DNA of 57,414 nt from Candidatus Omnitrophota bacterium (GTDB lineage: Bacteria; Omnitrophota; Gorgyraeia; Zapsychrales; Fredricksoniimonadaceae). The translations under genes were made by a program, and so were the position numbers. This document shows positions 9,188-57,414 of this stretch, piece after piece. Under the pieces are notes generated by a model. The model was not told the origin of the DNA. It did not search any database and saw only the letters and a program-made list of their open reading frames with translations. The stretch is from NCBI GenBank assembly GCA_963828495.1, contig CAWHFJ010000010.1:1-57414 (forward strand), written 5' to 3'. Position 1 is the first letter of the stretch; each line of letters starts with the position of its first letter.

Positions 9188-9282
9188 CTTCGGCTGCGAA
9201 TTGCCCGGGGCTCGACCCGCCGGTCGACGCTGCGATAGAGTGCGGTCCGCGCCGCGGATCGTTCCGTCAAAGTCGTCGTCTC

Positions 9283-10068: not shown

Positions 10069-10097
10069 CCCATCCCAATTCGAACCACTCCTGTGGG

Positions 10098-10220: not shown

Positions 10221-10285
10221 CGGCACGAGCGACCTCAGCCCGACAATCGGGTCCGACAATCGACCGTTCCGCCGGGGGAGGAACT

Positions 10286-11409: not shown

Positions 11410-11457
11410 GATAAAGTTCGCGGCCCCGCCGCCGTCTGGGGAGAGGGAGAACTGAGA

Positions 11458-11850
11458 TTGCGCCGTAATGATAACGCTCTCGATCCTCGGCCAGCTCGAT
11501 ATCATCGCCGGCGCGCACGCGGCGCCGGCGCATCGGCAAGCGACGTCGTCGATCCGTTCGTGTTCCGGCTGTCGATCTTCGTGCTGGCGGTGTTCGTCGG
11601 CTATTACGTGGTGTGGTCGGTGACGCCGGCGCTGCACACGCCGTTGATGTCGGTGACCAATGCGATCTCCTCGGTGATCGTGGTCGGCGCGCTGTTGGCG
11701 GTCGGTGTCGCGCTTGCCGGCGACGATACCGGTCCGCTGTGGGCGCGCGTCCTCGGTTTCGTCGCGCTCGTCTTCGCGTCGGTCAATATATTCGGCGGCT
11801 TCCTGGTGACGCAGCGCATGCTCGCCATGTTCCAGCGCAAGCAAAAATGA
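11458..11850 (+). CDS. NAD(P) transhydrogenase alpha-2 (membrane) subunit
   Basis: [31 protein letters not shown]; N-terminus probably frameshifted. Confidence 0.88.
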
Positions 11851-11866
11851 CAAGAAGGGCAGCCCA

Positions 11867-28629: not shown

Positions 28630-29376
28630 TCAGAGATCACAGGCCTTTACTTTATCTAAAAATACCTGATCCGTCAAATCCGAATGTATGGGAGTGACGG
28701 TAATGAACTTGTTCTTTAAGGCGTAGGTATCGATGGTATTATCATTTTTATGCGCCGGCATTTGGGAGCCCATCCAATAGTAATACTTATTATGGGGGCT
28801 TTTGCGTTTTTCAAAAACTTCATGAATGGGCTCTGTTCCCTGGCGGGTTAAACGCACACCTTTGGGTTTGCCCACCGGTACGTTGACGTTAAAAAATGTC
28901 CCTGAAGGCAACTTATTTTTATAAACCCATTTAGCCAATTTAGCGGTAAACTTGGCAGCTATGGAAAAATCCAGATTATCAAAAGAGTCCAATGAGACGG
29001 CAAAAGAATTGATACCCATCAGGGCCCCTTCGCGTGCCGCGGAAACTGTCCCCGAATAAAATACGCTGCAGCCGTCATTGGCGCCGGCATTGATACCGGA
29101 AATGACCATATCGGGCTTTTGACCTTTAAAAAGCACACTCACAGCCCATTTGACACAATCCGCCGGCTTGCCACTCATGGCATAACCATCAAAACGATGT
29201 CCGGGAGAAACTTTTTTGACAAACAACGGATAAAAAAGCGTGATCCCGTGTCCCACCGAGCTTTGCTCGCAATCAGGTGCGACGAGAGTCACATCAGCGA
29301 ATTTGATGAGTTCTTTATAAGCGGCATAAATACCTTCCGCGTAAATACCATCATCATTGGTCAGTAGGATACGCAT
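28630..29376 (-). CDS. surE: 5'/3'-nucleotidase SurE
   Basis: [36 protein letters not shown]. Confidence 0.95.
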   Translation of the reverse strand: MRILLTNDDGIYAEGIYAAYKELIKFADVTLVAPDCEQSSVGHGITLFYPLFVKKVSPGHRFDGYAMSGKPADCVKWAVSVLFKGQKPDMVISGINAGANDGCSVFYSGTVSAAREGALMGINSFAVSLDSFDNLDFSIAAKFTAKLAKWVYKNKLPSGTFFNVNVPVGKPKGVRLTRQGTEPIHEVFEKRKSPHNKYYYWMGSQMPAHKNDNTIDTYALKNKFITVTPIHSDLTDQVFLDKVKACDL

Positions 29377-32066
29377 TATTTTGCCAATTTTCTTAAAACA
29401 GTTTGCAAGATACCGCCATTGCGCAAATATTCGACTTCTACCGGCGTGTCTGTGCGGGCTATGACACTAAACTCACCTCTATGGCCGTTGGCAAAAGTCA
29501 CCGCAATCCTTATTTCCTGACGAGGTTTTAATGTGTCATCCAGGTTAATAAAATCGAAAGTCTCATCCCCTTTTAATCCTAAAGAAGCATAATTTTCACC
29601 TGGTTTAAACTGACAGGGTAAAATACCCATGCCGCACAAATTACTGCGGTGAATGCGTTCAAAGCTTTCCGCAATGACAGCCTTCACCCCCAGCAAAGCA
29701 GGGCCTTTGGCTGCCCAGTCACGGGAAGAACCGGTGCCGTATTCCTTGCCGGCCAACACAATCAGAGGCGTATGCGTTTCTTTATATTTCATGGCCGCCT
29801 CATATATAAACATTTTTTCGGCCGAAGGCCAATACGTGGTCCATGGCCCTTCGCAACCCTGCGCAATTAAATTGTGCAAACGGATATTGGCAAAAGTGCC
29901 GCGGATCATCACTCTATCATTACCGCGACGGGCACCATAACTGTTAAAATCTTTTGAGTCCAACCCCTTACCCTTAAGATATTTTCCCGCAGGAGAATCT
30001 TGGGCAATGGAGCCGGCCGGTGAAATATGGTCGGTTGTAATAGAATCCGCCACCATCACCAAACATCTGGCCTGTTTAATGCCCTCCAACGGATCGACTT
30101 GTAACTTTATACCCGTAAAATAAGGAGGTTTTTGGATATAGGTGCTTTGAGCGCTTCCAGTTAAAAAGATCAGACCGGCTGTTTTTAATGGCATTCCAAT
30201 CTTTATTGCCGCGGTCTACATTTTTATAACATCGACGGAAAATAGAGGCTTTAACAAACTTGGCGCAAACCTTGGCAATTTCTTGATGGGTCGGCCAAAT
30301 GTCTTTCAGATACACCGGTTGGCCTTTTTTATCCATGCCTAAAGGTTCGTGGGTCAAATCAATATCCACCCGCCCGGCCAAAGCAAAGCGACCACCAAAG
30401 GAGGAGACGCCAAAAAATTGGCTTTGGTATACGGGTTAATACGGCCTTCAAAATTACGATTACCGGAAAGCACTGCGGCCGCAACCAGATTGCTTTTGGG
30501 TGATCGCCTGGGCCACAGGCTTCAGGCAAAGGTCCGGAATTACCGATACAAGTCGTACACCCATAACCCACGATATTAAATTTAAGTTTTTCCAAGAAAT
30601 TTCATGAGTCCGGCTTTTTTCAAATACCCTTCAACCGCCTGTGAACCCGGCGCAAAAGAAGTTTTGACATACTAGGGCGGGCTCAAGCCTTTTTCCACAG
30701 CTTTTTTGGCCAAAAGCCCGGCGGCGATCAAGACCGAAGGGTTGGAAGTATTGGTACAACTGGTAATGGCCGCAATCACAACAGCGCCATGACCAATAGT
30801 TCATGGCCATTTTGCACATTGCCGTACGGCAAATCTTGAGGAAGGCCATACCGGGATGATATCCGTATAAAGTTTGGGGAAAATTGGTTTTTAAATCTCT
30901 TAAAGGGACCCTATCTTGCGGGCGTTTGGGGCCGGCCAAACAAGGCTCTACAGTGGACAAATCCAATTCAAACACATCAGAATAAAGACATTCCGCGGAT
31001 TTTGCACTGTAAAACAATCCCTGGGCTTTATAATATTTCTCCACCAAAGCTACTTCCTGAGCGCTTCGCCCGGATAATTTCAAATACTCAAGCGTCTTTT
31101 CATCAACAGGAAATAAACCGATCGTAGCCCCGTATTCCGGCGCCATGTTGGCGATCGTAGCCCTGTCCGGCAGGGATAAATATCGTAATCCTTCCCCAAA
31201 AAACTCCACAAATTTTTCCACCACGCCTTTTTTACGTAAAATCTGGGTAATGGTCAGGACTAAATCGGTCGCCGTCACTCCCTCTTGAAGTTTACCTTTA
31301 ATACGAAAACCGACCACTTCCGGTAAAAGCATATCAATGGGCTCGCCTAACATGACAGATTCAGCTTCAATCCCGCCTACTCCCCAGCCCACAATGCCAA
31401 GGCCATTGATCATGGTGGTATGCGAATCCGTACCCACTAAACTGTCGGGATAAGCTACATTTTTTAATCCGATTTTCTTTTTTAAAACGCCTTTAGCCAA
31501 ATATTCCAGGTTGACCTGATGCACAATACCGGTGGCCGGCGGCACTACCCTGAAATTTTGTAAAGCATTCTGACCCCATTTGAGAAATTCATAACGCTCT
31601 TTATTGCGGTCGAATTCCAGACGCACATTTTGGGCCAGGGCTTGACTTGTACCAAAACGGTCGACTTGCAGGGAATGGTCGATCACAAGATCACATGGCA
31701 CCTGGGGATTGATTTTTTCTATGTCGCCCCTTAAATGTTTCATGGCGTCGCGCATGGCAGCGATGTCGACGATACAGGGAACGCCGGTAAAATCCTGCAA
31801 GATGACCCGGCCGGGTTTAAAGGCGATTTCATCTTTTTTTTCATTGGGTTTCCAATGGGCTATGGTGTCGATATCTTTTTGAGTCACTTGATAACCATCA
31901 AAGTTACGCAAAGCGCTCTCTAAAAGGATACGGATGGAAAACGGCAGTTTAGATATATCCAGGCCCCGGGTTTTGGCAAATTGAGGCAAAGAATAGATAG
32001 TATGGGAGAATTGACTTCAGCTTTTTCACAACGATTTTTTATCAAAGGGGATCATATGCGCTTCAT
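29376..32066 (-). CDS. acnA: Aconitate hydratase A, multiple frameshifts
   Basis: [47 protein letters not shown] across pieces. Confidence 0.93.
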
Positions 32067-32072: not shown

Positions 32073-32780
32073 CTATATCGACGCCGCGTCAATAAGGAAT
32101 AAGGCAGGTTTTTTATCAAAATTGAGAGAATTTTTCTTCCATTCTTTGATGCGCATGGTCTTGATGATTTGATTAGAAGAGGTAATATCACAGGCCACGC
32201 AAAGATGGGTTTGATCATGGCAAGTCCCCAGAATGTCTTCCAGAATATTTTGATTACGGTACGGGGCCTCCATAAAAATTTGGGTTTGTTTTTCTTTTAA
32301 AGAACGTTCTTCGAGCTGCTTTATTTTTCGCGTTCTTTCCTGACGGTCACGGGGTAAATAACCGTTAAAAGCAAAATTCTGTCCGTTGAGGCCGGAGGCC
32401 ATTAAAGCCATCACAATGGAACACGGCCCCACCAAAGGCATAATATCTACGTGATGGCGATGGGCCAACAAGACCAAATCAGCGCCGGGATCTGCCACGC
32501 ATGGGGCACCGGCTTCTGAAATAATGGCCCCATCCCCTTCTTGAAGAATTTTGATGTACTCCTCAACCTGTTTAGAGGTGGTGTGTTCATTAAGATCATA
32601 AAAACGGCTCTCGCCAAGGGGGAATTGCGCATTTAATCTTTTAAGCAGGCGACGGGCAGATTTGGGTTCTTCGACAAAAAAAATACGCACATCATGAATT
32701 TCCCGGGCAATATATTCAGGAAGCAAATGCCGCTCTTCTTCATTGATCGTATTAGGGATTAAATATAATTTAGGCCTCAT
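32073..32780 (-). CDS. Tetrapyrrole-methylase-family SAM methyltransferase (RsmI-like)
   Basis: [51 protein letters not shown]. Confidence 0.85.
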
Positions 32781-34213
32781 TGAGAATCTTTGCCCCATGT
32801 CTTTTCCAGATAGGACTCGCGCCCGGAATTATCGTGGTACGAATTATATTGAATCGCACTTTTTTGGTAATATTTCTGATGATAATCTTCCGCCGGATAA
32901 AATGTTGACGCCGGTAGAATTTGAGTCGCAATAGGTTGATGAAAACGGCCGGAAGCGTTCAGGGCCCCTTTAGACTTCTCTGCCAGGCGTTTTTGTTCTT
33001 CATTGTGGTAAAAAATCACGGTCCTGTATTGCGTGCCTTCATCCACAAACTGGCCGTTCATCTGGGTGGGGTTAATATTATGCCAGTAGATGTTCAGGAT
33101 TTTTTCATAGGAAACCACCTGTGGGTCGAATTCTACCTGAATGGCTTCAGCATGACCGGTTGTGCCTGAAGAGACTTCCTCATAAGTGGGATTGGGAGTA
33201 GTCCCGCCGGTATAACCCACGGTCGTTTTCTTGACCCCTGGGGTATGGTCAAAAAAAGGCTGCATGCACCAAAAGCATCCGCCGGCAAAAGTCGCTTTTT
33301 CTAAATGCGGGTCCTTCAGCGCAACCCCCTGCTCTGAAGGTACGAATTTTAGGGCCACTGAATTGATACAATATCGCTTGCCTGTCGGTGCCGGGCCGTC
33401 ATCAAAGACATGCCCCAGATGCGCCCCACAGCGCGGGCAATACACCTCAATACGGGTCATACCAAGAGTTTTGTCCGTCAAATAAGCCATATTTTTCTCA
33501 TCAATGGGCTTGGTAAAACTGGGCCAGCCGGTTCCCGAGTCAAATTTATCCTCTGATGAAAATAAATCCAGACCGCAGTCAACACATTGATAAATGCCTT
33601 TGCGATGATTGTTGACATATTCTCCGATAAATGGCCTCTCAGTCCCTTTCCGGCGGGTCACATGATATTGCAAAGGAGTCAATATTTTCTTCCATTCTTC
33701 TGATGTCTTTTCTATCTTGGAGGTTTGAATATAAGATTGAGTGGCGGCATCATAAACCTCAATAGTATTTTGAGTTGTCATAGCTAATCCCTCCAATGCT
33801 TGCAATACTTGAGAAAATTCTTTAGAACTCGCAGCCCCTATGATCCGGGAATCTTTGACTTCATGACCATGGCTATCCAAAAAAACAACTGTCGGCACGC
33901 CGTCAATTTCATATTCCTGGATAATACTTTGCACTTTTGGCTCATCCATATCAGTCACATCCACCCGCAAGGCGGTCACTCGAGCCAATTGAGCTATAAT
34001 GGAAGGATCTGAAAAAACGGTTTGGTCTAATTCATGACAACCGGGACACCAGTCCGCATAAAAATCAATGACAACAGGTTTTTTTTGGTTGATGGAATTT
34101 AGCACCGCCTGCTTGCTGTAAGGCTTCCAAACAGATTGTCCTTGCTCCAAACCCACCTGCCGGCATGAGGTCAAAACAACGATCAGAAATATTAAACCAA
34201 TTAAATTTTTCAT
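32777..34213 (-). CDS. msrAB: Lipoprotein thioredoxin-MsrB-MsrA fusion
   Basis: Lipobox LTSC; [10 protein letters not shown]; Msr[30 protein letters not shown]; Msr[21 protein letters not shown]. Confidence 0.9.
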
Positions 34214-35107
34214 TTAACAACCGGTACCGTTGGTCACGCAAATATCATCGCCAGCTTTTGATACAACACCGGCCGCACTAACTGTAGGGGAGACAACGGG
34301 CGGCGGATTATGTACTAAAAAGCCATCTGCGTAATACTCATGACTGCCGTCTAATTGCGGGTTATAAACAACCACATCCTTGAATATTTTGAATGCAATC
34401 TTTTTCAGCCGTATTAACCCGGTGCGACCAACCAATCCGTCCCCCACTTGAAGTAGACCCACGTTAATTCCCGAATGTTGCTTTTGAGCTGTTTTAGGAT
34501 TAAGCGCCTTCCAGCCATGATCCGTCATAAAAAGATGGTCATCCGTCACAAAATATCTGCCCCCGTTAAAAGCATAGATCTTCCTGTCTTCTTTGGGCAT
34601 GACTTTAAAATGAACAAACTTATTGCGTGCTTGCTGTGAACCTAATAGCACATCCCCCGCTTGCAGGCTTTCAATGGCCTTCGTATGTCCATTGGCCAGC
34701 AGGACCTTCGTCCCTGATATAAAACACCCCCATTGACCATTCGGTCCCATAGAACCAATGACATAATATTGTCCATTCGCGGAAAGGTAATAATTATACT
34801 CCGTTGCAGGTGTAGGATTAAAAGGATCATAGAGTGGACTGGTAATGACCTGTGGTGTGGCCGAGACTAAATAATCAGCTCCCAGTGTAGTTGTCGCAGA
34901 ACCGGGAGTTCCGGGATAGGTAGACGGCGATGAATTGCTATAATACGACTCCACTGCCGCCTGAAGAGTTTGCAACTCAGCTTTGACCTGGGTTATTTGA
35001 CCTGCTTGCTGCATACCACTCATGCGCGGGATGGCAATACCAATAAGTATCGCCAGCACAGAGAGAACAATCACTAATTCTAGGATCGTAAAAGCTTTTT
35101 TGTTCAT
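34214..35107 (-). CDS. GspG/type IV pilin-like protein with internal Hint domain, copy 4 (+1 = Pro)
   Basis: MNKKA|FTILE prepilin motif, Pro22; Hint 34307-34726 (CFISGT..TDDH..VYN..LVHN), followed by PPPVVS. Confidence 0.88.
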   Translation of the reverse strand: MNKKAFTILELVIVLSVLAILIGIAIPRMSGMQQAGQITQVKAELQTLQAAVESYYSNSSPSTYPGTPGSATTTLGADYLVSATPQVITSPLYDPFNPTPATEYNYYLSANGQYYVIGSMGPNGQWGCFISGTKVLLANGHTKAIESLQAGDVLLGSQQARNKFVHFKVMPKEDRKIYAFNGGRYFVTDDHLFMTDHGWKALNPKTAQKQHSGINVGLLQVGDGLVGRTGLIRLKKIAFKIFKDVVVYNPQLDGSHEYYADGFLVHNPPPVVSPTVSAAGVVSKAGDDICVTNGTGC

Positions 35108-35115
35108 ATGGCTTC

Positions 35116-36009
35116 TTAACAGCCAGTACCATTGGTCACGCAAATATCATCGGCAACTTTTGTTACAACACCGGTCGTACTAACTGTAGGGTAGGGAGGA
35201 TGGATCGTATTATGTACTAAAAAGCCATCCGCGTAATACTCATGACTGCCGTCTAATTGCGGGTTATAAACAACCGCATCCTTGAATATTTTGAATGCAA
35301 TCTTCTTCAGCCGTATTAACCCGGTGCGACCAACCAATTCGTCCCCCACTTGAAGTAGACCCACGTTAATTCCCGAATGTTGCTTTTGAGCTGTTTTAGG
35401 ATTAAGCGCCTTCCAGCCATGATCCGTCATAAAAAGATGGTCATCCGTCACAAAATATCTGCCCCCGTTAAAAGCATAGATCTTCCTGTCTTCTTTGGGC
35501 ATGACTTTAAGATGAACTACCTTATTACGTGCTTGCTGTGAACCTAATAGCACATCCCCCGCTTGCAGGCTTTCAATGGCCTTCGTATGTCCATTGGCCA
35601 GCAGGACCTTCGTCCCTGAGATAAAACACCCCCATTGACCATTCGGTCCCATAGAACCAATGACATAATATTGTCCATTCGCGGAAAGGTAATAATTATA
35701 CTCCGTTGCAGGTGTAGGATTAAAAGGATCATAGAGCGGACTGGTAATGATCTGTGGTGTGGCCGATACTAAATAATCAGCTCCCAGTGTAGTTGTCGCA
35801 GAACCGGGAGTTCCGGGATAGGTAGACGGCGATGAATTGCTATAATACGACTCCACTGCCGCCTGAAGAGTTTGTAGCTCAGCTTTGACCTGGGTTATTT
35901 GACCTGCTTGCTGCATACCCTTCATACGCGGGATGGCAATACCAATAAGTATCACCAGCACAGAGAGAACAATCACTAATTCTAGGATCGTAAAAGCTTT
36001 TTTGTTCAT
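35116..36009 (-). CDS. GspG/type IV pilin-like protein with internal Hint domain, copy 3 (+1 = Thr)
   Basis: Same architecture; Hint 35209-35628, followed by TIHPPY. Confidence 0.88.
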   Translation of the reverse strand: MNKKAFTILELVIVLSVLVILIGIAIPRMKGMQQAGQITQVKAELQTLQAAVESYYSNSSPSTYPGTPGSATTTLGADYLVSATPQIITSPLYDPFNPTPATEYNYYLSANGQYYVIGSMGPNGQWGCFISGTKVLLANGHTKAIESLQAGDVLLGSQQARNKVVHLKVMPKEDRKIYAFNGGRYFVTDDHLFMTDHGWKALNPKTAQKQHSGINVGLLQVGDELVGRTGLIRLKKIAFKIFKDAVVYNPQLDGSHEYYADGFLVHNTIHPPYPTVSTTGVVTKVADDICVTNGTGC

Positions 36010-36019
36010 ATGGTCTCCT

Positions 36020-36910
36020 CTAACAGCCTGTTCCATTGGTCACGCAAATATCATCGGCAACTTTTGATACAACACCGGTCGTACTAACTGTAGGAGGAGA
36101 GGTGGGCACATTATGTACTAAAAAACCATCCGCATAATACTCATGACTGCCGTCTAATTGCGGGTTATAAACAACCGCATCCTTGAATATTTTGAATGCA
36201 ATCTTTTTCAGCTGTATTAACCCGGTGCGCGTAACAACTTCGTCCCCTACTTTCAGCTGGCCCACTTTGATTCCTGGATGTTGCTTTTGAGCTGTTTTAG
36301 GATCAATCGCCTTCCAGCCTTCCTTGGTCATAAAAAGATGGTCATCCGTCACAAAATATCTGCCCCCGTTAAACGCATAGATCTTCCTGTCTTCTTTCGG
36401 CATGACTTTAAGATGAACAACCTTATTACGTGCTTGCTGTGAACCTAATAGCATATCCCCCGCTTGCAGGCTTTCAATGGCCTTCGTATGTCTATTGGCC
36501 AGCAGGACCTTCGTCCCTGATATAAAACACCCCCATTTACCATTCGGTCCCATAGAACTAATGACATAATATTGTCCATTCGTAGAAAGGTAATAATTAT
36601 ACTCCGTTGCAGGTGTAGGATTAAAAGGATCATAAAGCGGACTGGTAATGATCTGTGGTGTGGCCGATACTAAATAATTAGCTCCCAGTGTAGTTGTCGC
36701 AGAACCGGGAGTTCCGGGATAGGTAGACGGCGATGAATTGCTATAATACGACTCCACTGCCGCCTGAAGAGTTTGTAACTCAGCTTTAACCTGGGTTATT
36801 TGACCTGCTTGCTGCATACCCTTCATACGCGGGATGGCAATACCAATAAGTATCACCAGCACCGAGAGGACAATCACTAATTCTAGGATCGTAAAAGCTT
36901 TTTTGTTCAT
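36020..36910 (-). CDS. GspG/type IV pilin-like protein with internal Hint domain, copy 2 (+1 = Val)
   Basis: Same architecture; Hint 36110-36529, followed by VPTSP. Confidence 0.88.
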   Translation of the reverse strand: MNKKAFTILELVIVLSVLVILIGIAIPRMKGMQQAGQITQVKAELQTLQAAVESYYSNSSPSTYPGTPGSATTTLGANYLVSATPQIITSPLYDPFNPTPATEYNYYLSTNGQYYVISSMGPNGKWGCFISGTKVLLANRHTKAIESLQAGDMLLGSQQARNKVVHLKVMPKEDRKIYAFNGGRYFVTDDHLFMTKEGWKAIDPKTAQKQHPGIKVGQLKVGDEVVTRTGLIQLKKIAFKIFKDAVVYNPQLDGSHEYYADGFLVHNVPTSPPTVSTTGVVSKVADDICVTNGTGC

Positions 36911-36918
36911 ATGGCCTC

Positions 36919-37809
36919 TTAACAGCCAGTACCATTGGTCACACAAATATCATCGGCAGCTTTTGATACAACACCGGTCGTACTAACTGTAGGGGATGAA
37001 ACAACCGCATTATGTACTAAAAAGCCATCCGCGTAATATTCATGACTGCCGTCTAATTGCGGGTTATAAACAACCACATTCTTGAATATTTTAAACTCAA
37101 TCTTTTTCAGCCGTATTAACCCGGTACGAGTAACAACTTCGTCCCCTACTTTCAGCTGGCCCACTTTAATTCCCGAGTGCTGCTTTTGAGCTGTTTTAGG
37201 ATCAAGCGCCTTCCAGCCATGATCCGTCATAAAAAGATGGTCATCCGTCACAAAATATCTGCCCCCGTTAAACGCATAGATCTTCCTGTCTTCTTTCGGC
37301 ATGACTTTAAGATGAACAACCTTATTACGTGCTTGCTGTGAACCTAATAGCATATCCCCCGCTTGCAGGCTTTCAATGGCCTTCGTATGTCTATTGGCCA
37401 GCAGGACCTTCGTCCCTGAGACAAAACACCCCCATTTACCATTCGGTCCCATAGAACCAATGACATAATATTGTCCATTCGTAGAAAGGTAATAATTATA
37501 CTCCGTTGCAGGTGTAGGATTAAAAGGATCATAGAGTGGACTGGTAATGATCTGTGGTGTGGCCGATACTAAATAATTAGCTCCCAGTGTAGTTGTCGCA
37601 GAACCGGGAGTTCCGGGATAGGTAGACGGCGATGAATTGCTATAATACGACTCCACTGCCGCCTGAAGAGTTTGTAACTCAGCTTTGACCTGGGTTATTT
37701 GACCTGCTTGCTGCATACCCTTCATACGCGGGATGGCAATACCAATAAGTATCACCAGCACCGAGAGGACAATCACTAATTCTAGGATCGTAAAAGCTTT
37801 TTTGTTCAT
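36919..37809 (-). CDS. GspG/type IV pilin-like protein with internal Hint domain, copy 1 (+1 = Ala)
   Basis: GAGGAGG RBS; Hint 37009-37428 (C128-N267), followed by AVVSS. Confidence 0.88.
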   Translation of the reverse strand: MNKKAFTILELVIVLSVLVILIGIAIPRMKGMQQAGQITQVKAELQTLQAAVESYYSNSSPSTYPGTPGSATTTLGANYLVSATPQIITSPLYDPFNPTPATEYNYYLSTNGQYYVIGSMGPNGKWGCFVSGTKVLLANRHTKAIESLQAGDMLLGSQQARNKVVHLKVMPKEDRKIYAFNGGRYFVTDDHLFMTDHGWKALDPKTAQKQHSGIKVGQLKVGDEVVTRTGLIRLKKIEFKIFKNVVVYNPQLDGSHEYYADGFLVHNAVVSSPTVSTTGVVSKAADDICVTNGTGC

Positions 37810-40615: not shown

Positions 40616-42033
<1,418 letters not shown>

Positions 42034-42044: not shown

Positions 42045-42915
42045 CTATTTCAGCGCTTCTGCTCCGGATATGACTTCAATTAATTCCGTTGTGATCCCCG
42101 CTTGCCGCGCACGATTGCGCAACAGCGTGTAGCGGTCAATTAAATCTACCGTATTCTGGGACGCTTTATCCATCGCTGACATGCGTGCCCCGTGTTCACC
42201 GGCCGCATTTTCCAGTAATACAAAGAAAATTTTAAAACTCAAAAATTTAGGGATTAAGAATGAAAATATCTGGGTTTCTTGAGGTTCATACGTATAGTAG
42301 GCGTTGGGGAACCGCATGTCATTGCGGACTAAAACAGACGGCTCCAAAGGCAATATTTTTTCAATCACCGGCGTTTGGGACAAAGGCCCGTTAAAATGAT
42401 TGTAGGCCAAATAAATTTCGTCGTATTCTTCTTTGATAAACGCGGTTGTCATATCTTGGGCGACGTTTAAGGCGTCATTGAAATCCGGCTTAACCGTGAT
42501 ATTTTCATAATATTTCCGGATGCGCGCGCTACGGCGAAAAGACATATACCCCCGGCGCCCGCAAAAACTCATGTCCATGGTGGCGTACTTATGACGATTG
42601 TCTTGTGCCCAGCTTCTTGGTTTTTCGAATCAAATTATTATTAAAAGCGCCGCACAGCCCCTTGTCTGAAGTAAATAAAATGATCAAAGCCCTTGTCGCT
42701 GTTTTTTGTATTTTAAACAACGGATGATTCTCCGAGCCTGCCCTGGCAAGGCGCGCTATGAGTTCGGAGAGCTTGGCCGCATACTCCTTAGCATTGATTT
42801 GCGCCTTATAGGCCTTCTTGAATTTGCTGGCCGAAACCATTTTCATGGTTTTGGTCATCTTGCCCATATTTTTCAGCGAAATAATTTTCTTATTATATGC
42901 TTTGATACTGATCAT
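42045..42915 (-). CDS. atpG: ATP synthase gamma subunit, frameshift near 42590
   Basis: [33 protein letters not shown]. Confidence 0.93.
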
Positions 42916-49646: not shown

Positions 49647-50612
49647 TCAACCACATGCCTCAATCAAATACCCCTCTTTCTTATCATATCCGTTGAGCTT
49701 CAAAATCGAAGTCACTAGTCTGCCTTTTTTATTCTTGTTGCTTTTTTGAATATAAACCAACAAGTTGACTGCTTCCGCTATAGCCTCAGGCACACAAACA
49801 ACCCCAGATTCCATCATTAATTGTTCTAATCGTAAAAGCCCGCTTTGGGCGGAATTCGCATGCACGGTGCTTACACCCCCCGGATGGCCGGTATTCCAAG
49901 CCTTAATCAGCGAATACGCCTCTTTACCGCGCACTTCGCCGATGATAATTCTATCCGGCCTTATACGCATACAATCAAAGATCAAATCATTCATTGTTTT
50001 TGTCGGTGATACTCCGCATAGTCACAGAATCTTTGACATTGCATTTGAGTTCCTGAGTATCTTCAATAATGATAATTCTATCGTCGGGATGTGTCCGGCA
50101 ATGCAATCCAAAATCGCATTACAGAATGTTGTTTTACCTGATTGCGTGCCGCCCACGACCAAAATGGACATTCTTTTTCCCACAGACTCTTTTATTATTA
50201 TCTCTTGCTGTGCTGTTAATATTTCGTCTTTTACATAATCTTCCAATGGGATGACCGACCCCGCGCGTTTTCTGATAGCAAACGCCGGATATGACACGAC
50301 CGGTGGGATAAAAGCTTGAAATCGGAATAATTTAAACTCATCATTGATTTCAACCCAGAGTTCCCCTCCAAAACTGGGATTCTTATACGTGATGATTTCA
50401 TCTGATACGCTGGCGACCGTGTTAATCAAATTTTTCGCCGCCGCAGCCGTCATTAACCCATATTCGTGTTTACCTTTATAGCCATCGACCCACAAGGTCC
50501 CGTCAGGATTAAGTAAAATTTCATAAATCTCTTCATCCGCAAGTGCCGATAAAACAAGCTGACCTAAATCTTGTTTTAATTTATTTTGCGTCCGCGAGTG
50601 TTCCCTCAGCAT
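49647..50612 (-). CDS. trbB: P-type conjugative ATPase TrbB/VirB11, frameshifted near 50050
   Basis: EILLNPDG, GGTQSGKTT, RPDRIIIGEVRG, AWNTGHPGG.STVHAN. Confidence 0.88.
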
Positions 50613-50770
50613 CTTTGATCTCCTCCAACACAATGTCTTTCATAACAATGATCTTAAATTTATACCCCGGATCAATGATCAGCGTCGGTTGAACATCCAT
50701 GTTTTTCTGTAACGTCTGCCCGCTGACATCCGCCAGCTTTTGGCCAACACTGGCCGCGACAGTCTCCCTG
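50581..50770 (-). CDS. C-terminal fragment of TrbI/VirB10 (not in ORF track)
   Basis: Translates to SVGQKLADVSGQTLQKNMDVQPTLIIDPGYKFKIIVMKDIVL, the VirB10 C-terminal motif; cut at junction. Confidence 0.75.
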
Positions 50771-51953
50771 GTTCGCCATGGCGGTGATGTCCCTTGCGGT
50801 TAATGAGGACTCCCGAATCGTGCAACGTCGCCGCGGCTTCCAGAATTGTCCTCGATTCAAGATCCAGCCGATGATAAGGCCAAAGTTTGTCGAAAAGCTG
50901 CAATGCCAGGGAGCGAACTTGTTGCGCATGTTTTAGATCGCAGTGCACGCGGCACGCGAAGGATTCCGCCCCGGCGAGGATGACCTGCGAGTGCTTTCGC
51001 TGTTCCGGAGTAGGCGCTGGGGGCAACATTTGAGCGGCCGCCAAATTGTAAAGCAATCCTTCGCGCACGCCCACGCGCGGCGTAATCATTTGCTGAAGCC
51101 GCAACCAGCGGGCCACCGTAACGAGGACGATGGCCGGACACCCATAACTTCGGAACGGTCCGGACGTACGCCGAAGAGGCTCATTCGTCCTTCGACGTCG
51201 AGCTGGAGGATCTGCCAGAGCCGGTCGTTCAGCAGTCTGGGACTCAATGTCGCTAATCCGCCCACCCGGGTGCCGGGAGCAATCGTCGCGAGGGTCTCGG
51301 CATTTCCTCCGCAGGCGACAGCGAGGGATGTGGCGATGCGGGGTCTGTTCGGAACCGCGCTCTGTAGACGGACCACACATGTGAACGGATTTCATTCGCA
51401 GTGTTCTCATGGATCACGCCCTGCGCCTTGAAGGCTTCCATCAGGCGCACCGTGCAGAGGCAATCCGGTACTTTCCTGCAGTACTCCGTTCCGCAGTACG
51501 TTCAGCTCGAGGCTGCCTCCGCCGAGATCGAGAATGAATCGTGGCGAATCGTAGTTGCGCATCGCGCGAAGCGCAGCCAGGCAGACTAGACGGGCTTCTT
51601 CATCTCCTGAAATAATTTCGAGATTAATCTGTGCGTACTGGCGAATCCGCTCGATCAAAACATGGCGGTTGCCTGCTTCGCGTGCGGCGCTGGTGGCGAC
51701 GGCACGATAGGCCGTGACGCCATGCCGGTCCATGATTTTCCTGAATTCGCGAAATGCGGCTGTCGCGTCGCGAGGGTCTGCGATCAAGTAGTCCGGAAGT
51801 GAACGCCGAATGCCCAAGCCGCACGGGAGCGCGCACCGATTCCACGATCTCCCATTCGTCAATGGAGCGCACATTGGAGACAATCAGGCGGAACGCGTTC
51901 GATCCCGCGTCGATCGCGGCCAGGTGGATAGGTTTGGGTAGTCTCAGCGCCAC
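50771..51953 (-). CDS. ppx: Ppx/GppA exopolyphosphatase, frameshifted, truncated at junction
   Basis: AAIDAGSNAFR, VATSAAREA, DLGGGSLE, GVREG, HD-domain LHDSG..HHRHG. Confidence 0.88.
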
Positions 51954-52736
51954 AGTGAGGCCAGTGCTGCCGATGGCCTGTAATGAGTCCGTGTAATCCC
52001 AAGATGGCTGGCGATCCGTTTCCGGAGTTCCGTATTCACAGCGGCCACACTGGCCTCGCCATCCATCGCAAGAAATCCGTGCTGCTCGGAAAGCATCTCG
52101 AATTCCTTCTTAATTTTTGCCTGGTACATGATGAACGATTGGAACAAATCGTCGGAAAGCGAAAGGTCGCGTCCCGATTCCCAGTAGCTGATCGTGTGAG
52201 ATTTTCTGAATTCGCGTTCAAACGCCGCCTCCGGCCGCACATTCAACCAGAACGTCAATCCGGCCGCAGGGCCATTTCGTAAAGCCCGTTCAATATTCGC
52301 GCTGAATGCCACGCGCGGCCGCCCGCGCAATCGAGTATAAGAAATACCGGTCCGCGAGGACAACAAAATCCGAACGAAGTGCGGGAATGATACGGTGTCC
52401 GAGCTGGTCGTAAAAATCGGTCGCGTACATTAACGTAAGCGTCATGCGCGTGATCGTGTTTTCGGCCAGCAGGGCGTCAATGTCTTTTGCGACCAGGCCG
52501 GACCTCCGCAGCCCCATCGTTTCCACGGCGAAGCCTTCCGATTCCAGCCATTCGGTGAGCAGAGCGATTTGCGTCGAGCGGCCGGACCGTCCATGCCTTC
52601 GATCACAATCAGCGAGCCACCGAATACCCGTCTTCAACGGCCGGCAGGGTAGCCCGTAGTTGCGCGGCGTCGCTCCGGGGGGTGCGAGGTCAGGTTTTTC
52701 ATGGTTGCCTTTTCGGCTCTTCCCAGTTGTCTTCAT
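51944..52736 (-). CDS. Thymidylate-kinase-like protein 2, frameshifted
   Basis: GSGRSTQ P-loop variant, YATDF, VLADRY, SYWESGRDL. Confidence 0.75.
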
Positions 52737-53506
52737 GGAAGGGGCCTCCGTCCCGCCCGCTTCGGAGCGAATCGTGACAGATCGATGCGCGACTTTACGA
52801 ACTGGCGCATCTGCTTCTGGAGTTTGTTCACGGGAAGCGTTCCGTCCATCACCACAAAGTGGTCGGATTCGATCATTTCGTCGTACTGCGCGAGAATACG
52901 GCCCTGAAAAATCCGGAAGCTTTCCGCGCGGTCCAGCGAAAGATTCAGGTCCATTCCGGCTTCATAATGCTTGAGTTTGGGGCGCCCGCTCATGATGCGG
53001 TTGACGGCCACGTCCAGAGGGGCGCGAAAGTAAAATGTGATGTCGGGGACGGGAGCGAACCGGTAAAGATTCCTCAGCCATCGTGGAGAACAATTGCGCG
53101 CAACGTCCCGCGCAAACGCCGTGTAAACATACCTGTCCGCCAGAACCAGATACCCGCTGTGCAGGAGCGGGAGAATTTGCCGTTCGCAGCGGTCTGCAAA
53201 ATCGGCGGCATGGAGCAGTGAAAATGTTGTGGGAGTCAGTAACCGCCGCTGTTTCCCGCGCCGGGTGGCGGATTTTACCAGAGGAGAAGAATTCCATTCC
53301 GTGAAGTGCAAACGATAACCGCCAATTTCCAGCCACCGTTTGAGCAAATAAAGCTGGGTGCTTTTTCCCGACCCGTCAATCCCTTCCACGACGATCAATG
53401 CCCCCGGGTAACCGCGGGCGGGCTCGAGCAATTGGGAGGCCTGGCTCGGGGCCTCCGCCGATTCAGTCAATGCGGAGTCGGTAGCTGAATCCGTGCGTGA
53501 GGCCAA
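52733..53506 (-). CDS. Thymidylate-kinase-like protein 1
   Basis: VEGIDGSGKSTQ, HAADFADR, LADRY, YEAGMD; TTG start at 53506 with GGAG RBS. Confidence 0.82.
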   Translation of the reverse strand: MASRTDSATDSALTESAEAPSQASQLLEPARGYPGALIVVEGIDGSGKSTQLYLLKRWLEIGGYRLHFTEWNSSPLVKSATRRGKQRRLLTPTTFSLLHAADFADRCERQILPLLHSGYLVLADRYVYTAFARDVARNCSPRWLRNLYRFAPVPDITFYFRAPLDVAVNRIMSGRPKLKHYEAGMDLNLSLDRAESFRIFQGRILAQYDEMIESDHFVVMDGTLPVNKLQKQMRQFVKSRIDLSRFAPKRAGRRPLP

Positions 53507-53632
53507 ATAAGTTTCTCCGCTGCGTATTATACGCACAGAATGTAAATTTATGGTTACAAGAACATGATGCCGTGATGAACGCGCCTCCCACCGCCAGTTG
53601 CAAAAGCGTTCTTGCCAAGGCAAACTATTTCC

Positions 53633-54627
53633 GTGAGTACGTACGACGTAATCTGCATCGGCGCGGGACCCACGGGGCTGGCATGCGCCATTGAAGCCAA
53701 GCGCGCAGGGATGCGTCCGCTGGTGATCGACAAGGGCGCGCTCTGCAATTCCATTTATCATTATCCGGTGAACATGGTGTTTTTCACCACGCCGGAGCTT
53801 CTGGAGATTGGCGACATTCCTCTTACAAGCGCGGCAGAAAAACCGACTCGCGTGGAAGCCCTCAAATATTACCGCAAATGCGTCGAGCACTTCGGGCTGG
53901 ACATGCGCCTCGGACATCGGGTGGAAAAGGTCGAAGGTTCGGACGGGCGATTCATCGTGCATACGCGGGCCGAGCGGGGAATTGTCGAGCAATTTCACGC
54001 CAAAAAGATTGCAGTCGCGACCGGATACTACGACCTGCCGAATCGTCTTGGTATTCCGGGGGAAGACTTGCCCCACGTTTCCCACTACTACACGGAACCG
54101 CATCCCTTCTGGCGGCAAAACGTGATCGTCATCGGCGGAAAAAATTCGGCCGCCGAGGCAGCTCTGGACCTCTACCGGTCGGGTTCCAACGTCACGATGA
54201 TCCACCGCAAGGCAGAACTCGGCTCGACGATCAAGTATTGGGTTCGTCCGGATATTGAAAATCGCATCAAGGCCGGCCAGATTCGCGCGCTCTTTGAAAC
54301 CGTGGTGAAACGCATTGAGCCAGGACACGTCTGGATCGCCAACGGATCGGGTGAAACGTCATTGCCCGCCGATCAAGTCTTCGCATTGACCGGCTATCAC
54401 CCCGATTTCGAATTCCTGCGCTCGATGGGCATCGCGCTGGATCGCGCAACAAACAGCCCGTTATGGACCCGCAAACACACGAAAGCAATGTGCCGGGAAT
54501 CTATGTCGCTGGAGTCGTCATCGGCGGGAATCACACCAGCGAGATATTCATCGAGAACGGCCGCTTCCACGGTAAACAGATAGCCGCTGCGCTAGCGGGC
54601 AAGCTGATCCCTTCCAACGCTTCTTGA
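53633..54627 (+). CDS. YpdA-family flavin disulfide reductase, frameshift near 54450
   Basis: IGAGPTG, YPVNMVFFTT, IGGKNSA, IKYWVRPDIENRI, FIENGRFHG in the shifted frame. Confidence 0.88.
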
Positions 54628-54703
54628 ATTCCGTTACCGATTCCTGGCCGATCGAGAATCTCCGATTTGCCGCCCAACCTCGACTTTGTTAGACTAGCTG
54701 GCG

Positions 54704-55165
54704 ATGTCATCGATGATCAAAGAAGCTGGCGAAACATTCGTTACGTTGGTGAAGGGCTTCAGCGTGACGTTCCGCAATATGCTCCGGAAAACCGTCACCG
54801 AAAACTACCCCGAAGAGCCGGTCCATTTTCAAGCGCGGTATCGTGGTATCCACGTCCTTCATCGAGATGAAAACGGTCTGGAAAAGTGCGTCGGCTGTTT
54901 CCTGTGTGCTGCCGCTTGCCCCGCGCGGTGCATCTATATCGAAGCCGCGGAGAACACAGACACGCAACGCATCTCCGCCGGAGAACGCTACGCCAGCGTT
55001 TACAATATCGACTATTCAAGGTGCATCTTTTGTGGCTATTGCGTGGAGGCCTGTCCCACCGATGCCATCACGCACGGACATGGTTTTGAGCTGGCCACTT
55101 CCAACATCAATGCGCTGATTTACCGCAAAGAGAAGCTTCTGGAAAAGATCCAGTCGGCCACGTAG
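54704..55165 (+). CDS. nuoI: NADH-quinone oxidoreductase subunit I
   Basis: RYRGIHVL, CVGCFLCAAACP, CIFCGYCVEACP. Confidence 0.93.
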   Translation: MSSMIKEAGETFVTLVKGFSVTFRNMLRKTVTENYPEEPVHFQARYRGIHVLHRDENGLEKCVGCFLCAAACPARCIYIEAAENTDTQRISAGERYASVYNIDYSRCIFCGYCVEACPTDAITHGHGFELATSNINALIYRKEKLLEKIQSAT

Positions 55166-55440
55166 ACGCACTCCCTGTTTTTTTCAAGAATCCAAGCACG
55201 ACCGGCTGATCGCCGGATGTTTCCGCCGCCAGAGCGGCCCTGCCACACGGCGTAACCAGTCCCCCCCCACGCGCAGTGAGCTGCACCGTAACTAAATTCC
55301 CACCTACTTTTTTCAGGATTTCAATTTTCCGAGCGGTTGACTTTACGACCCAGAGGTACCGGGAACTTTGGTGTCCGGACCGAGGAAGAACGAAGCTGAA
55401 AGAATTGCAGGGTAACTGCAACCCATTGTGCGGATTAAAA

Positions 55441-55485
55441 TGGCGGGGCCGACGAGACTCGAACTCGCGACCTCCTGCGTGACAG
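55441..55485 (-). repeat. att site: duplicated 3' half of tRNA-Asp(GTC)
   Basis: Reverse complement CTGTCACGCAGGAGGTCGCGAGTTCGAGTCTCGTCGGCCCCGCCA; 55440-55482 identical to 57372-57414; diverges from tRNA beyond the anticodon loop. Confidence 0.9.
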
Positions 55486-55795
55486 TTGTTGCCATCCCAT
55501 TTCGCTACTGAGTGCTACCGTCTGCTATAGTGTCGAATCTCTGCGCCAATAGCGGCGATTTCCGCTTTTGTCCATGTGCTACCGTCTACGACGGTTCTTA
55601 ACGGTTCTTGTTCGAAGTGGGGCACAAAATGGGGCACAGTGGATTTTGTCCCGCGCAATGTGACTCTGCCGCGAGAAATGCCGTTTCCCGCGCACAGGGG
55701 GGGCTGGCGGACGATTGTTAGCGAGGTGCGGCTCTCTCACCCCATTTTTTGCCATGGATGGCGAGCAAGACTCGAATTCACGGTCAATAACTCTC

Positions 55796-56041
55796 TCAGT
55801 TGCGGGCGCGTTTCTTCGGGATGCCACTATCTACACCCTTGAGAAGTTCACTGACGGTGATGCCTAAACCGTGGGAGATTTTTACAAGTGTCTTGAGAGA
55901 GGGCACCCGCCTGCCTTGTTCTATCCAGCCGACGGCCACGCGATGCAAGCCTACTTGGTCAGCGAAGGCTTCTTGAGAGAACCCCCGTTTCTTCCGTAGT
56001 TCCCGCATTCGTTTTGCCAAAGCGATGAGCACTCGTTGCAT
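55796..56041 (-). CDS. XRE-family HTH regulator
   Basis: RELRKKRGFSQEAFADQVGLHR..IEQGRRVPSLKTL. Confidence 0.85.
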   Translation of the reverse strand: MQRVLIALAKRMRELRKKRGFSQEAFADQVGLHRVAVGWIEQGRRVPSLKTLVKISHGLGITVSELLKGVDSGIPKKRARN

Positions 56042-56136
56042 TCCGCATAGTCTGGGAGTAGCATCTCTTCCGGTCCACAAACAGTAAGTTGACATACGGA
56101 ACGTTGAGCACAGCACGCAGTGGGGGTCCGAAAGTC

Positions 56137-56547
56137 ATGAAACGCGCCTTCATTTCCGCAATTGTGTTGGCCGTCATATTCACAGGGTGCAGTGGTGATA
56201 TTCACCTCTACGATTTGCAGACTGGCGCGAAGAGCGCATTCAAGTATCACTACAAGGCAAACGGAAGCCGGGGAACCATGAATGGATCGCTGGCTGACGG
56301 TGAGTCGTTTATTGGCGAATATAGCTTGGTAACGAATGCTGTCGTCGGGTGGGGTTCAATTTATGGGGCAGGGGGAACGGCCAGCGGTACTGCAATCGCT
56401 ACAGGAGGAACGCGATACGGGGCAGCAGTGCTCACCGGGAGCAAGCAAACGGTGCTCGAATGCGAATTCACAGTTGGCGGGTTAAGCGCTCACGGAACGG
56501 GCACGTGCAAAACCAACCGTGGCGACACCTTTCGAATGATGTTCTAA
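56137..56547 (+). CDS. Small Gly/Thr-rich lipoprotein
   Basis: MKRAFISAIVLAVIFTGC lipobox; Cys pair (LECEF, GTCK). Confidence 0.75.
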   Translation: MKRAFISAIVLAVIFTGCSGDIHLYDLQTGAKSAFKYHYKANGSRGTMNGSLADGESFIGEYSLVTNAVVGWGSIYGAGGTASGTAIATGGTRYGAAVLTGSKQTVLECEFTVGGLSAHGTGTCKTNRGDTFRMMF

Positions 56548-56561
56548 GACTGAAACGCTAG

Positions 56562-57362
56562 GCGGCAGACATTGGTAGTTATCAGGGGAAAAGAAAGGGG
56601 GCGGGGGCTGCCGGGCGCACGGTCAATCTTGAAATCGCCGTGCTTCGCGCCATCATGAGGAAGTCGAAACTTTGGGGCGCAATTTCGGATGACGTTCAAA
56701 TGCTGAAAGAGCGTCGCGACGTGGGCCGTGCAATCACCCCAGAGCAAGAAGCCTTATTGCTGAGAGTGGCAAGCGAACCCCGATACCGCGATTCTGCGCT
56801 TTATCCCATCGTTGTGCTGGCCCTCAATACCGCGATGCGCTCAAACGAAATCAAGACCTTGCGATGGTCCCAGGTTGACCTACTCCATAGGTCGCTGATT
56901 GTTGGGAATAGCAAAACCGATTCGGGAAGCGGTCGCCTTATCCCATTGAATCAATCTGCTATTGCGGTGCCGGTGACGTGGGCTAGCCGCACGCCAGAGG
57001 CAAGCCCGGAGCATTTTGTCTTTCCGGCCTGTGAGAATCACAAGATCGACCCTACAAGGCCAATAGCGAGTTTTAGAACCGCGTGGCGCAATGCGACGAA
57101 GAAGGCAGGATTGCCGGGGCTGCGGTTTCACGATATGCGGCACACAGCGATTACCAAGCTGGCGGAGTCCATGACAAGCGAGCAAACCATCATGGCGATT
57201 TCCGGACACGTGTCGCGCCGGATGCTGGAGCACTACTCGCATATTCGCATGGATGCGAAGCGGACAGCGGTTGAGGCTATCTCACAGCCCATTTCTGAGG
57301 GGAGTGGGGCACAGAATTGGGCACAGTCGCAAGAATCACAAAAAGCGACTGCCCCTAGCTGA
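56562..57362 (+). pseudogene. Tyrosine integrase, N-terminally truncated
   Basis: AMRSNE, KT, HDMRH, SGH, HY catalytic residues intact; integrase-like frame (DIGSYQGKR..RTVNLEI) starts right after an in-frame TAG with no start codon. Confidence 0.8.
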
Positions 57363-57372
57363 TTGAAAAATA

Positions 57373-57414
57373 TGGCGGGGCCGACGAGACTCGAACTCGC
57401 GACCTCCTGCGTGA
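57373..57414 (-). tRNA. tRNA-Asp 3' part (gene extends beyond window)
   Basis: T-arm GTTCGAGTC and CCA end; anticodon GTC inferred from the duplicated copy. Confidence 0.75.

Follow-up and report, generated by a model that had tools for sequence, protein, structure and literature searches.

The stretch of DNA considered here (the window, 57,414 nucleotides in its full length) is contig C10, CAWHFJ010000010.1, of a 1.80-Mb genome (G000; 26 contigs, 72% complete) of Candidatus Omnitrophota. On its minus strand, at positions 34214-37809, lie four consecutive intact open reading frames (ORFs), if the start of each is taken to be the conserved MNKKAF. Each encodes a protein that begins as a type IV pilin, is then interrupted by a Hint domain of the bacterial intein-like (BIL) kind, and ends in a short tail. 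The genes, called c1 through c4, and their parts are located as follows:

36919-37809, minus strand: c1, pilin-Hint-tail gene, 296 amino acids; head at 37429-37809 (residues 1-127), tail at 36922-37008 (residues 268-296)
37009-37428, minus strand: Hint (BIL-like) insert of c1, residues 128-267
36020-36910, minus strand: c2, pilin-Hint-tail gene, 296 amino acids; head at 36530-36910, tail at 36023-36109
36110-36529, minus strand: Hint insert of c2, residues 128-267
35116-36009, minus strand: c3, pilin-Hint-tail gene, 297 amino acids; head at 35629-36009, tail at 35119-35208
35209-35628, minus strand: Hint insert of c3, residues 128-267
34214-35107, minus strand: c4, pilin-Hint-tail gene, 297 amino acids; head at 34727-35107, tail at 34217-34306
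34307-34726, minus strand: Hint insert of c4, residues 128-267

Between the genes lie 8, 10, and 8 nucleotides, rich in purines, and a GGAGG-like ribosome binding site (RBS) lies upstream of c1. Compared in pairs, the copies are 92.2-95.9% identical in DNA and 88.9-94.9% identical in protein, and a search for repeats finds the four copies spaced by 899-902 nucleotides. (Tandem Repeats Finder reported no array, its longest period being 500 nucleotides as against a unit of about 900.) The ORF list, the identities, and the repeat spacing together confirm what an earlier reading of the letters alone (the sequence-only reading) had claimed, that there are here four intact ORFs of 296-297 codons in tandem.

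All four proteins carry a class III signal, KKA/FTILE, with glutamate at position 5 and proline at position 22 of the mature protein, and the longer motif MNKKA/FTILELVIVLSVLVILIGIAIP is present in 4/4 copies. The residue preceding the predicted prepilin cut is alanine in c1-c4 and glycine or serine in homologues; at position -1 of class III signals it is usually glycine. The head stops at residue 127 (..GxWG). There follow 140 amino acids with the motifs of a Hint domain, C128 (in CF[VI]SGTKV), T188-D-D-H191, VYN at 247-249, and H266-N267, and after HN comes a tail of 29 amino acids in c1 and c2 or 30 in c3 and c4, whose last residues are DDICVTNGTGC. The signal, the end of the head at 127, Cys1, TDDH, VYN, HN, and the tail, all of them described before, were thus found in each of the four copies. 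The claim that there is no endonuclease also holds, as a Hint of 140 amino acids is too small to leave space for one.

That there are several copies does not depend on the window assembly by itself. Logan contigs from four soil-metagenome runs of a single study align to the array with 0-4 mismatches and no indels. Of the three internal junctions they bridge two, c2/c3 (at 35591-36176) and c3/c4 (at 34836-35182 and 35056-35206), leaving c1/c2 outside their coverage, and at 34041-34320 they cross from c4 into the gene downstream. No RNA run was found among those containing the array. One of the four runs may be the source sample of the window assembly, and depth in the public runs is low (2-6). 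The sequence-only reading would have been overturned by raw reads showing a single copy, and on this point the contigs that cross the junctions support a multicopy array. The four copies are real and, from the substitutions considered below, under selection.

The heads find their named relatives in Candidatus Omnitrophota/Omnitrophica. TIGR02532 gives c1 17.5 bits (cut-off 16.3), and PF07963 (N_methyl) rises above its cut-off only in c4 (22.5 vs 21.2 bits), with scores of 19.1-19.2 bits in c1-c3. Models for GspG, PilA, and ComG match the N-terminal part of c1 below their cut-offs. When a profile of the pilin-Hint proteins (A1) was aligned by hhalign with 16 pilins lacking a Hint, the match had a probability of 100% and an E-value of 3.2e-67 over 122 columns; it covered the head, the short tail past the 140-column insert not being part of the alignment. 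The same genome also encodes, on contig C11, a Hint-less pilin of 151 amino acids that is 73% identical to the head of c1 and nearly identical to it over the first 58 residues, yet the DNA of the two loci is only about 77% identical over the first 180 nucleotides. Near-identity of protein combined with this degree of difference in DNA indicates that the similarity is held by selection on the protein and not by recent gene conversion from the C11 locus.

The genome carries the machinery expected of a type IV filament. Peptidase_A24 (prepilin peptidase) has three matches above its cut-off, T2SSE matches 18 times at E<=0.001 and exceeds its cut-off in 15 of these, and T2SSF and secretin models also exceed their cut-offs. 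The C11 pilin belongs to a cluster of genes on one strand. Read in rising coordinate, the reverse of transcription, it consists of a PilO-like gene, a PilM/N fusion, the 151-residue Hint-less pilin, GspF/PilC, PilB/GspE, a response regulator, the secretin, three minor pilins (one of them LamG/TafC-like), and a giant pilin of 802 amino acids. By NCBIfam the proteins of this cluster are equally near to the equivalogs of type IV pili and of type II secretion systems, all below cut-offs. The secretin scores higher as PilQ than as GspD, both scores again under the cut-offs, and the cluster has genes of the PilM/N/O type. An identification of the array pilins as GspG major pseudopilins (TIGR01710) was rejected, c1 reaching 34.5 bits against an equivalog cut-off of 88.85. 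Owing to this score and those of the C11 cluster, the pilins are classed only as type IV filament pilins. To that extent the earlier assignment to pilins stands, through the TIGR02532 and N_methyl scores, the C11 paralogue, and the profile-profile match to Hint-less pilins.

The giant pilin (G000:C11:39795-42203, minus strand, the same as L155:10795-13203) is itself of interest. Its pilin module is complete, ending in CVTNGSGC, and is followed by a region rich in Cys and then by four FN3 domains, with a Hint between the second and the third. The Hint (residues 459-598) is of the same family as those of the array, with valine at +1, the position following HN. Relatives have versions of 1327 amino acids (L119). 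Self-processing of the giant pilin could free its distal FN3 modules.

The nature of the inserted domain emerges from comparisons with profiles and with proteins of solved structure. Hom_end_hint matches 23/23 members of A1 at E<=0.001, and at the same threshold other models of the Hint clan match fewer of the 23: Vint 11, PT-HINT 8, Hint 8, and Hint_2 4. Against the sequences of the PDB, the whole-protein profile A1 finds BIL2 of Tetrahymena (6TMM/6Y75) with an E-value of 3e-10 and a BIL of Clostridium thermocellum (2LWY) with 2.9e-7. A profile confined to the Hint (A5) finds both over their full length, at 7.5e-18 and 2.1e-10, followed by 8W20 at 7.5e-9; canonical mini-inteins lie between 1e-7 and 1e-2. 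In the A5 alignments, Cys1, TxxH, and the C-terminal ..YYADG.LVHN fall over the catalytic blocks of BIL2 and 2LWY. C128, T188, H191, H266, and N267 are invariant in alignments A1 (23 sequences) and A4 (24 sequences), the members of which are 51-95% identical to the first sequence of each alignment. An ESM Atlas model of one homologue, P0020 (pLDDT 0.72), resembles Hint_2 and PT-HINT clusters with TM scores of 0.50-0.55, which may serve as a lead only.

The +1 residue varies. Counted over 25 pilin-Hint proteins, proline and alanine occur six times each, valine five times, arginine, isoleucine, and serine twice each, and asparagine and threonine once each, so that Ser or Thr occurs in 3/25, within the array only in c3 (Thr), and Pro in 6/25, c4 included. 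A canonical intein was therefore rejected, since the +1 nucleophile is not conserved. A polymorphic toxin of the PT-HINT type was rejected as well, because the 29-30 amino acids after the Hint contain no toxin domain and are homologous to the C-terminus of Hint-less pilins, as was Hedgehog-type sterol transfer, there being no region past the pilin tail. In every feature of sequence that was examined, the inserted domain fits the type A BILs, and it is predicted to be catalytically active. The matches to BIL2 and 2LWY and the invariant catalytic residues uphold the prior assignment to Hint domains of the BIL kind, and the searches with hidden Markov models that had been proposed as a check returned N_methyl/TIGR02532 and Hom_end_hint/PT-HINT matches.

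What the Hint interrupts may be seen in the pilins that lack it. In Hint-less pilins of the Omnitrophota, a head (..YYVI.S.G...) leads through a short variable loop to I..GVV..(DD)ICVTNG.GC. Head and tail are contiguous in this way in P0035, P0044, P0049, P0031, and the C11 pilin, in a pilin of genome G216 (L140, ending in ..LSISNTGVVLKIGDDICVTNGSGC) and three tandem pilins of the same genome, and in three pilins of G429, a genome of the same genus. In c1-c4 the Hint is located between ..YYVIGSMGPNGxWG and ..GVVSK..DDICVTNGTGC, and head plus tail come to 156-157 amino acids, compared with 146-165 for most Hint-less relatives. At the insertion site, the loop of Hint-less pilins varies in both length and sequence. 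In the tail, no member of the Hint-bearing family departs from C289, N292, G295, or C296, and conservation at the equivalent positions of the Hint-less pilins is at least 90%. A few related pilins, such as the G305 pilin (ending in ..AGDISF) and P0042, do without the Cys-loop tail. Judged from these alignments, the Hint was inserted cleanly, at a variable loop of a pilin.

Since Hint-less relatives have both parts contiguous, head and tail probably belong together in the mature product, by the same logic that is applied to the exteins of inteins. The invariance of four tail positions argues further against a mere shedding of the Hint with its tail. The sequence-only reading had offered two ways of maturation, excision of the Hint or the shedding of Hint plus tail at the cell surface. 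The comparative data favor the former, while the contiguous relatives and the invariant tail speak against the latter.

Substitutions amongst the four copies bear on whether the inserted domain is maintained. For the ratio of nonsynonymous to synonymous substitution rates (dN/dS) the head gives 0.10-0.37, the Hint 0.22-0.37, and the tail 0.33-1.15; purifying selection acts on head and Hint. All six columns directly after HN vary among c1-c4. Synonymous divergence climbs along the gene, from 0.03-0.10 in the head through 0.05-0.19 in the Hint to 0.14-0.44 in the tail, and c3 and c4, 98-99% identical over 300 nucleotides of the Hint, have unrelated linkers after HN. We infer that head and Hint evolve in concert and that loop and tail escape homogenization or are exchanged. 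The copies do not seem to be silent cassettes like those of pilS, a candidate rejected in view of the start codon, RBS-like spacer, and intact frame of each, and of the low DNA identity to the C11 pilin (about 77%), which speaks against recent conversion from that locus. Recent foreign origin of the Hint was rejected too, its GC fraction of 0.44 being the same as that of the head.

A tree was made of 163 Hint domains, selected by motif among the homologous proteins retrieved. In it, 22 of the 25 pilin-embedded Hints group together with a fragment (P0017) and one long pilin, next to Hints found in giant pilins and in secreted proteins rich in Cys. The Hints of c1-c4 cluster with one another, as do the copies of other contigs, though support for the joint clade is low (0.61). 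Probably there were one or a few insertion events, followed by tandem duplication or homogenization specific to each lineage. The family of pilin-Hint proteins has no endonuclease and gives no sign of homing.

A word-indexed search for the architecture returned fragments and 20 homologues of full length (identity 47-91%, coverage 99% or more), every one from metagenome data of JGI, ENA, Logan, or GEM. None of the 13 listed members of seven homologue clusters originates from NCBI or UniRef. An exhaustive search of representatives gave 7434 matches at E<=0.001, mostly to the Hint domain alone, and the wider Hint family (P0051-P0189) includes proteins of up to 4119 amino acids with up to seven matched stretches. 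Two proteins, P0021 and P0023, have Hints arrayed head to tail. In Hint domains outside of pilins the +1 residue is lysine in 116/138 cases, as opposed to 0/25 in those embedded in pilins.

Within the phylum the combination is scarce. In 400 other Omnitrophota species genomes, drawn from the phylum as a whole and with five candidates scored in each, no match spanned head and Hint. A profile of the Hint C-terminus plus tail, run against 168 genomes from the order, with 16 from the same genus among them, found the junction in G000 only, four times; many of the 168 are incomplete. A scan of contigs with A1, in which hits were chosen by the N-terminal pilin pattern, kept 80 loci, all matching the head only, to residue 146 at most. 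A scan of metagenomes with the junction profile, in contrast, gave 21 loci, of which 10 cover the junction. One locus (L120) has five consecutive pilin-Hint genes in 4.4 kb. Another (L119) has the 1327-residue giant pilin followed by two pilin-Hint genes, in a neighborhood syntenic with C11, and a third (L126) has a pilin-Hint gene followed by minor pilins. The architecture search suggested by the sequence-only reading has thus recovered about 25 homologues, from metagenomes only and often in tandem or in pilus clusters. The pilin-Hint family is real, recurrent, and narrowly distributed, and in some relatives it is physically tied to pilus clusters. In close relatives, two or three Hint-less paralogues of the major pilin occur in or near the pilus cluster (L139:7665-9058 of G216 and L154:8489-12945 of G429), from which it appears that the multiplicity of pilins predates Hint insertion or is independent of it.

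How might such proteins mature? That the parts are a pilin and an inserted BIL-type Hint is close to certain. It is likely, judging from the catalytic residues and the Hint-less relatives, that the Hint is active and absent from the assembled subunit; probably it must leave before the subunit can enter the pilus. The account proposed here, in which we place moderate confidence, is that c1-c4 are tandem paralogues of the major pilin and encode pro-pilins that would excise the Hint and rejoin head and tail. Whether rejoining would be the main outcome is evenly balanced.

By this account, the class III signal and the hydrophobic helix would insert the protein in the inner membrane, with the globular part in the periplasm. 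Cys128 would undergo an N-to-S acyl shift at Gly127-Cys128, producing a thioester, and cyclization of Asn267 would cut the bond between HN and the +1 residue, freeing the alpha-amine of the tail. The amine would then attack the thioester, the route proposed for type A BILs, by which a +1 nucleophile is unnecessary. The outcome would be a joined precursor of 156-157 amino acids with the leader still on, or 151-152 after removal of the five-residue leader, besides by-products of hydrolysis. In size and layout the joined precursor would be equivalent to the Hint-less paralogues. The free Hint would be discarded, prepilin peptidase would cut the joined pilins, and the C11 machine would polymerize them with its own Hint-less pilin. 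With most of their differences in the loop after the junction, the four products would amount to four surface variants. Type A BILs do end in His-Asn without a +1 nucleophile, and splicing through attack of an amine on the thioester is considered possible for them in the available text of PMC4031507.

Several points weigh against excision and rejoining. No Pfam model of the Hint clan reaches its gathering score on c1-c4, the best being Hom_end_hint with 24.6-29.5 bits (32.1 required). The assembly of the window has frameshifts in genes neighboring the array, even if the four pilin-Hint frames are intact. Proline, found at +1 in 6/25 of the pilin-Hint proteins, is a poorer amine for ligation. 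In the oxidizing periplasm, disulfide formation with the two cysteines of the tail could trap Cys128. Finally, cleavage by type A BILs outweighs splicing in vitro (PMC7664689 and the accessible part of PMC4031507), and one review, in its available portion, holds type A BILs to be unable to ligate (PMC7765530).

Some of the same points would suit a Hint that only cleaves, cutting at its N-terminus, its C-terminus, or both with no rejoining. The subunit would then be the 127-residue head, or the head with its tail held noncovalently, and the Hint would be shed with or without the tail. This outcome is judged unlikely. It would accord with the dominance of cleavage products of type A BILs in vitro (PMC7664689; PMC4031507, as far as available), with the lack of a +1 nucleophile and the six cases of proline in its place, and with the existence of related pilins that have no Cys-loop tail (the G305 pilin and P0042). 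But a head ending at Gly127 would miss a segment that nearly all relatives keep, and the tail is the normal C-terminus of Hint-less pilins, with four positions invariant in all Hint-bearing homologues. Alternatively, the thioester at Gly127 might be resolved by an outside amine, perhaps a lysine of a neighboring subunit, of another protein, or of a target cell surface, leaving the pilin head covalently cross-linked or attached, much as the N-flank of Tetrahymena BIL2 is to lysines. BIL2 is by sequence the closest solved relative (E 7.5e-18), and in the text available of PMC8616854 it forms an isopeptide bond and passes its N-flank to other proteins. The +1 lysine of 116/138 Hints in the wider family would also fit, but it is found in 0/25 of the Hints within pilins, no candidate acceptor was identified, and rejoining in cis explains the conserved tail better. 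Conjugation in trans is considered improbable.

Because the two ends of a Hint fold are near each other, insertion in a loop is sterically possible, and the Hint might also simply be retained, displayed on a low-abundance or tip subunit, or else unprocessed subunits might cap or block assembly. The 802-residue pilin of the same genome, with its FN3 modules and Hint, could be cited in favor, as could the modular pilins with grafted domains that are widespread (264 architectures, according to the accessible text of PMC8179133). However, the full catalytic set (C1, TxxH, HN) is invariant and under purifying selection, needless for an inert module, and it is to the major pilin, not to minor pilins, that the genes are paralogous, the assembly helix being nearly identical. 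We regard a retained module as quite improbable. As for the view that the array is a duplication made by the assembly, or that the Hint insertions are nonfunctional remnants, one may point to the frameshifted aconitase and ATP synthase genes in the window, the depth of 2-6 in public runs, and a genome 72% complete. Against these stand copies that differ at 4-8% of their bases and have distinct linkers after HN, independent contigs that cross c2/c3, c3/c4, and the boundary of c4 with the gene downstream, 4/4 intact frames with dN/dS well under 1, and similar arrays on unrelated metagenome contigs. Artifact or decay is extremely improbable. Excision of the Hint with rejoining of head and tail is retained as the working account.

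The array shares traits with several known systems. Type A BIL domains, reportedly the subject of Amitai 2003 and Dassa 2004, are likewise of about 140 amino acids, without endonuclease, with Cys1, TxxH in block B, C-terminal His-Asn, and no conserved +1 nucleophile, and they likewise sit in variable regions of exported, non-housekeeping proteins. They differ in their hosts: in the array the Hint divides a type IV pilin, whose fold would be unbroken in the paralogues, whereas described BILs sit in proteins of the adhesin or toxin type (PMC7765530 and PMC4031507, in the parts available). BIL2 from the BUBL protein of Tetrahymena thermophila (6TMM, 6Y75) is the best match of solved structure, in which the entire domain aligns, blocks A, B, and G included, but it is eukaryotic, has ubiquitin-like flanks, and has its N-flank conjugated to lysines (PMC8616854, available text), while the flanks here are the two parts of one pilin. 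Modular type IV pilins, for example PilB of Streptococcus sanguinis and those of an InterPro survey, also combine a class III pilin module with a domain foreign to the pilus; in the available text of PMC8179133, however, the module is appended after the pilin and kept as its functional part, and here it lies inside the pilin and is predicted to remove itself.

Class 1 mini-inteins (gp41-1, DnaB, DnaX) have the Hint motifs, Cys1, the terminal HN, and hosts with uninterrupted homologues. The pilin Hints depart from them in having Ser or Thr at +1 in 3/25 only, a host that is no housekeeping enzyme, no homing endonuclease, and a similarity weaker than that to BILs. With the PT-HINT domains (PF07591) of polymorphic toxins there are weak matches (8/23 members at E<=0.001), but no toxin domain follows the Hint, the 29-30 amino acids there being the pilin's own C-terminus.

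Type IV filament subunits are among the most studied of bacterial surface proteins. Their maturation includes leader cleavage, methylation, glycosylation, and the like, but is not known to involve a self-splicing or self-cleaving step. A search of the literature turned up no pilin described as carrying a Hint, BIL, or intein domain; neither 'Hint' nor 'intein' occurs in the main text of PMC8179133, and its Dataset S1 (264 architectures), which was outside the search, may list N_methyl with Hint. The initial claim that no pilin-Hint system has been described therefore holds for the literature searched. It is tempered by two ESM Atlas clusters annotated with N_methyl (98-100%) and PT-HINT (99-100%), one of 68 members and 423 amino acids and the other of 52 members and 397 amino acids, mostly from Bacillota where the phylum is known; their feature scores of 0.79-0.81 make them a lead only. 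The bare combination of N_methyl and Hint may thus exist elsewhere, uncharacterized and possibly arisen independently in another phylum. Modular pilins are already known, as are BIL domains of secreted proteins; what appears new is the arrangement, a Hint inside a pilin.

If the account is true, intein-like chemistry acts naturally on an exported, membrane-anchored structural protein, and the splicing of BILs in vivo, chemistry in the periplasm, and the gating of pilus assembly or the making of subunit variants become open to test. The proteins would be an attractive model, being small (297 amino acids), with clear catalytic-dead controls and natural paralogues that are, so to speak, already spliced. 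They also offer a concrete and approachable feature of the poorly understood cell-surface biology of Omnitrophota.

The gene downstream of the array is of possible relevance to that chemistry:

32777-34213, minus strand: thioredoxin-MsrB-MsrA fusion, lipoprotein-like, 478 amino acids (Pfam Thioredoxin, SelR, PMSR), its ATG right after the c4 stop

It is possibly in the same operon as the array. A scan gave 10 promoter-like sites (12.6 expected) and two terminator-like sites (6.0 expected), neither of the two on the minus strand between the array genes, which is compatible with a single operon. At metagenome locus L122 the order of the window is repeated, with pilin-Hint, thioredoxin, MsrB, MsrA, methylase, and aconitase, except that thioredoxin, MsrB, and MsrA are three separate genes after the pilin-Hint gene (L122:1261-2857). 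In G216, a genome of the same family, genes for a DsbD-like/thioredoxin protein, MsrB, and MsrA stand beside the secretin of a pilus cluster with no Hint (L139:211-2453). A Hint-specific role of the thioredoxin/Msr neighbor was rejected for this reason, as G216 has an equal neighbor with Hint-less pilins. The redox and Msr genes may be linked to the pilus system in a manner not specific to the Hint.

One may speculate, and the idea is an unlikely one, that the Hint is a chemically active checkpoint or warhead of the pilus instead of a passenger. As a checkpoint, splicing outside the cytoplasm, possibly gated by redox state, may license pro-pilins for assembly, and thioredoxin/Msr would keep Cys128 reduced. 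As a warhead, by analogy with BIL2, the Gly127 thioester may be resolved in trans by a lysine, giving cross-linked subunits or a pilus tethered to the surface of host or prey. The lineage is suspected of a host-dependent life. If true, the latter version would represent covalent chemistry in a type IV filament that is independent of sortase.

The remainder of the window calls for brief comment. Rfam and tRNA scans of it found nothing. The aconitase gene at 29376-31989 (minus strand) is broken over at least four frames, and in the relative represented by L122 the aconitase is intact, with 911 amino acids. ATP synthase beta is divided between two overlapping ORFs in the region of 40616-42033 and 42045-42578 (both minus strand), where gamma is apparently truncated at 177 amino acids; the gamma homologue in L140 has 292. 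The breaks in aconitase and ATP synthase probably arose as local errors of assembly where coverage is low; otherwise the genes would be pseudogenes. The ends of the window, 1-13000 and 50000-57414, are GC-rich (0.53-0.65, compared with 0.37-0.48 in the middle of the contig) and may be mobile or foreign DNA, or the result of chimeric assembly. Toward the ends are found a DDE_5 transposase (6051-7388), phage-type integrases (14087-15268 and 56640-57362), and a gene of the AAA_14/DUF4143 type.

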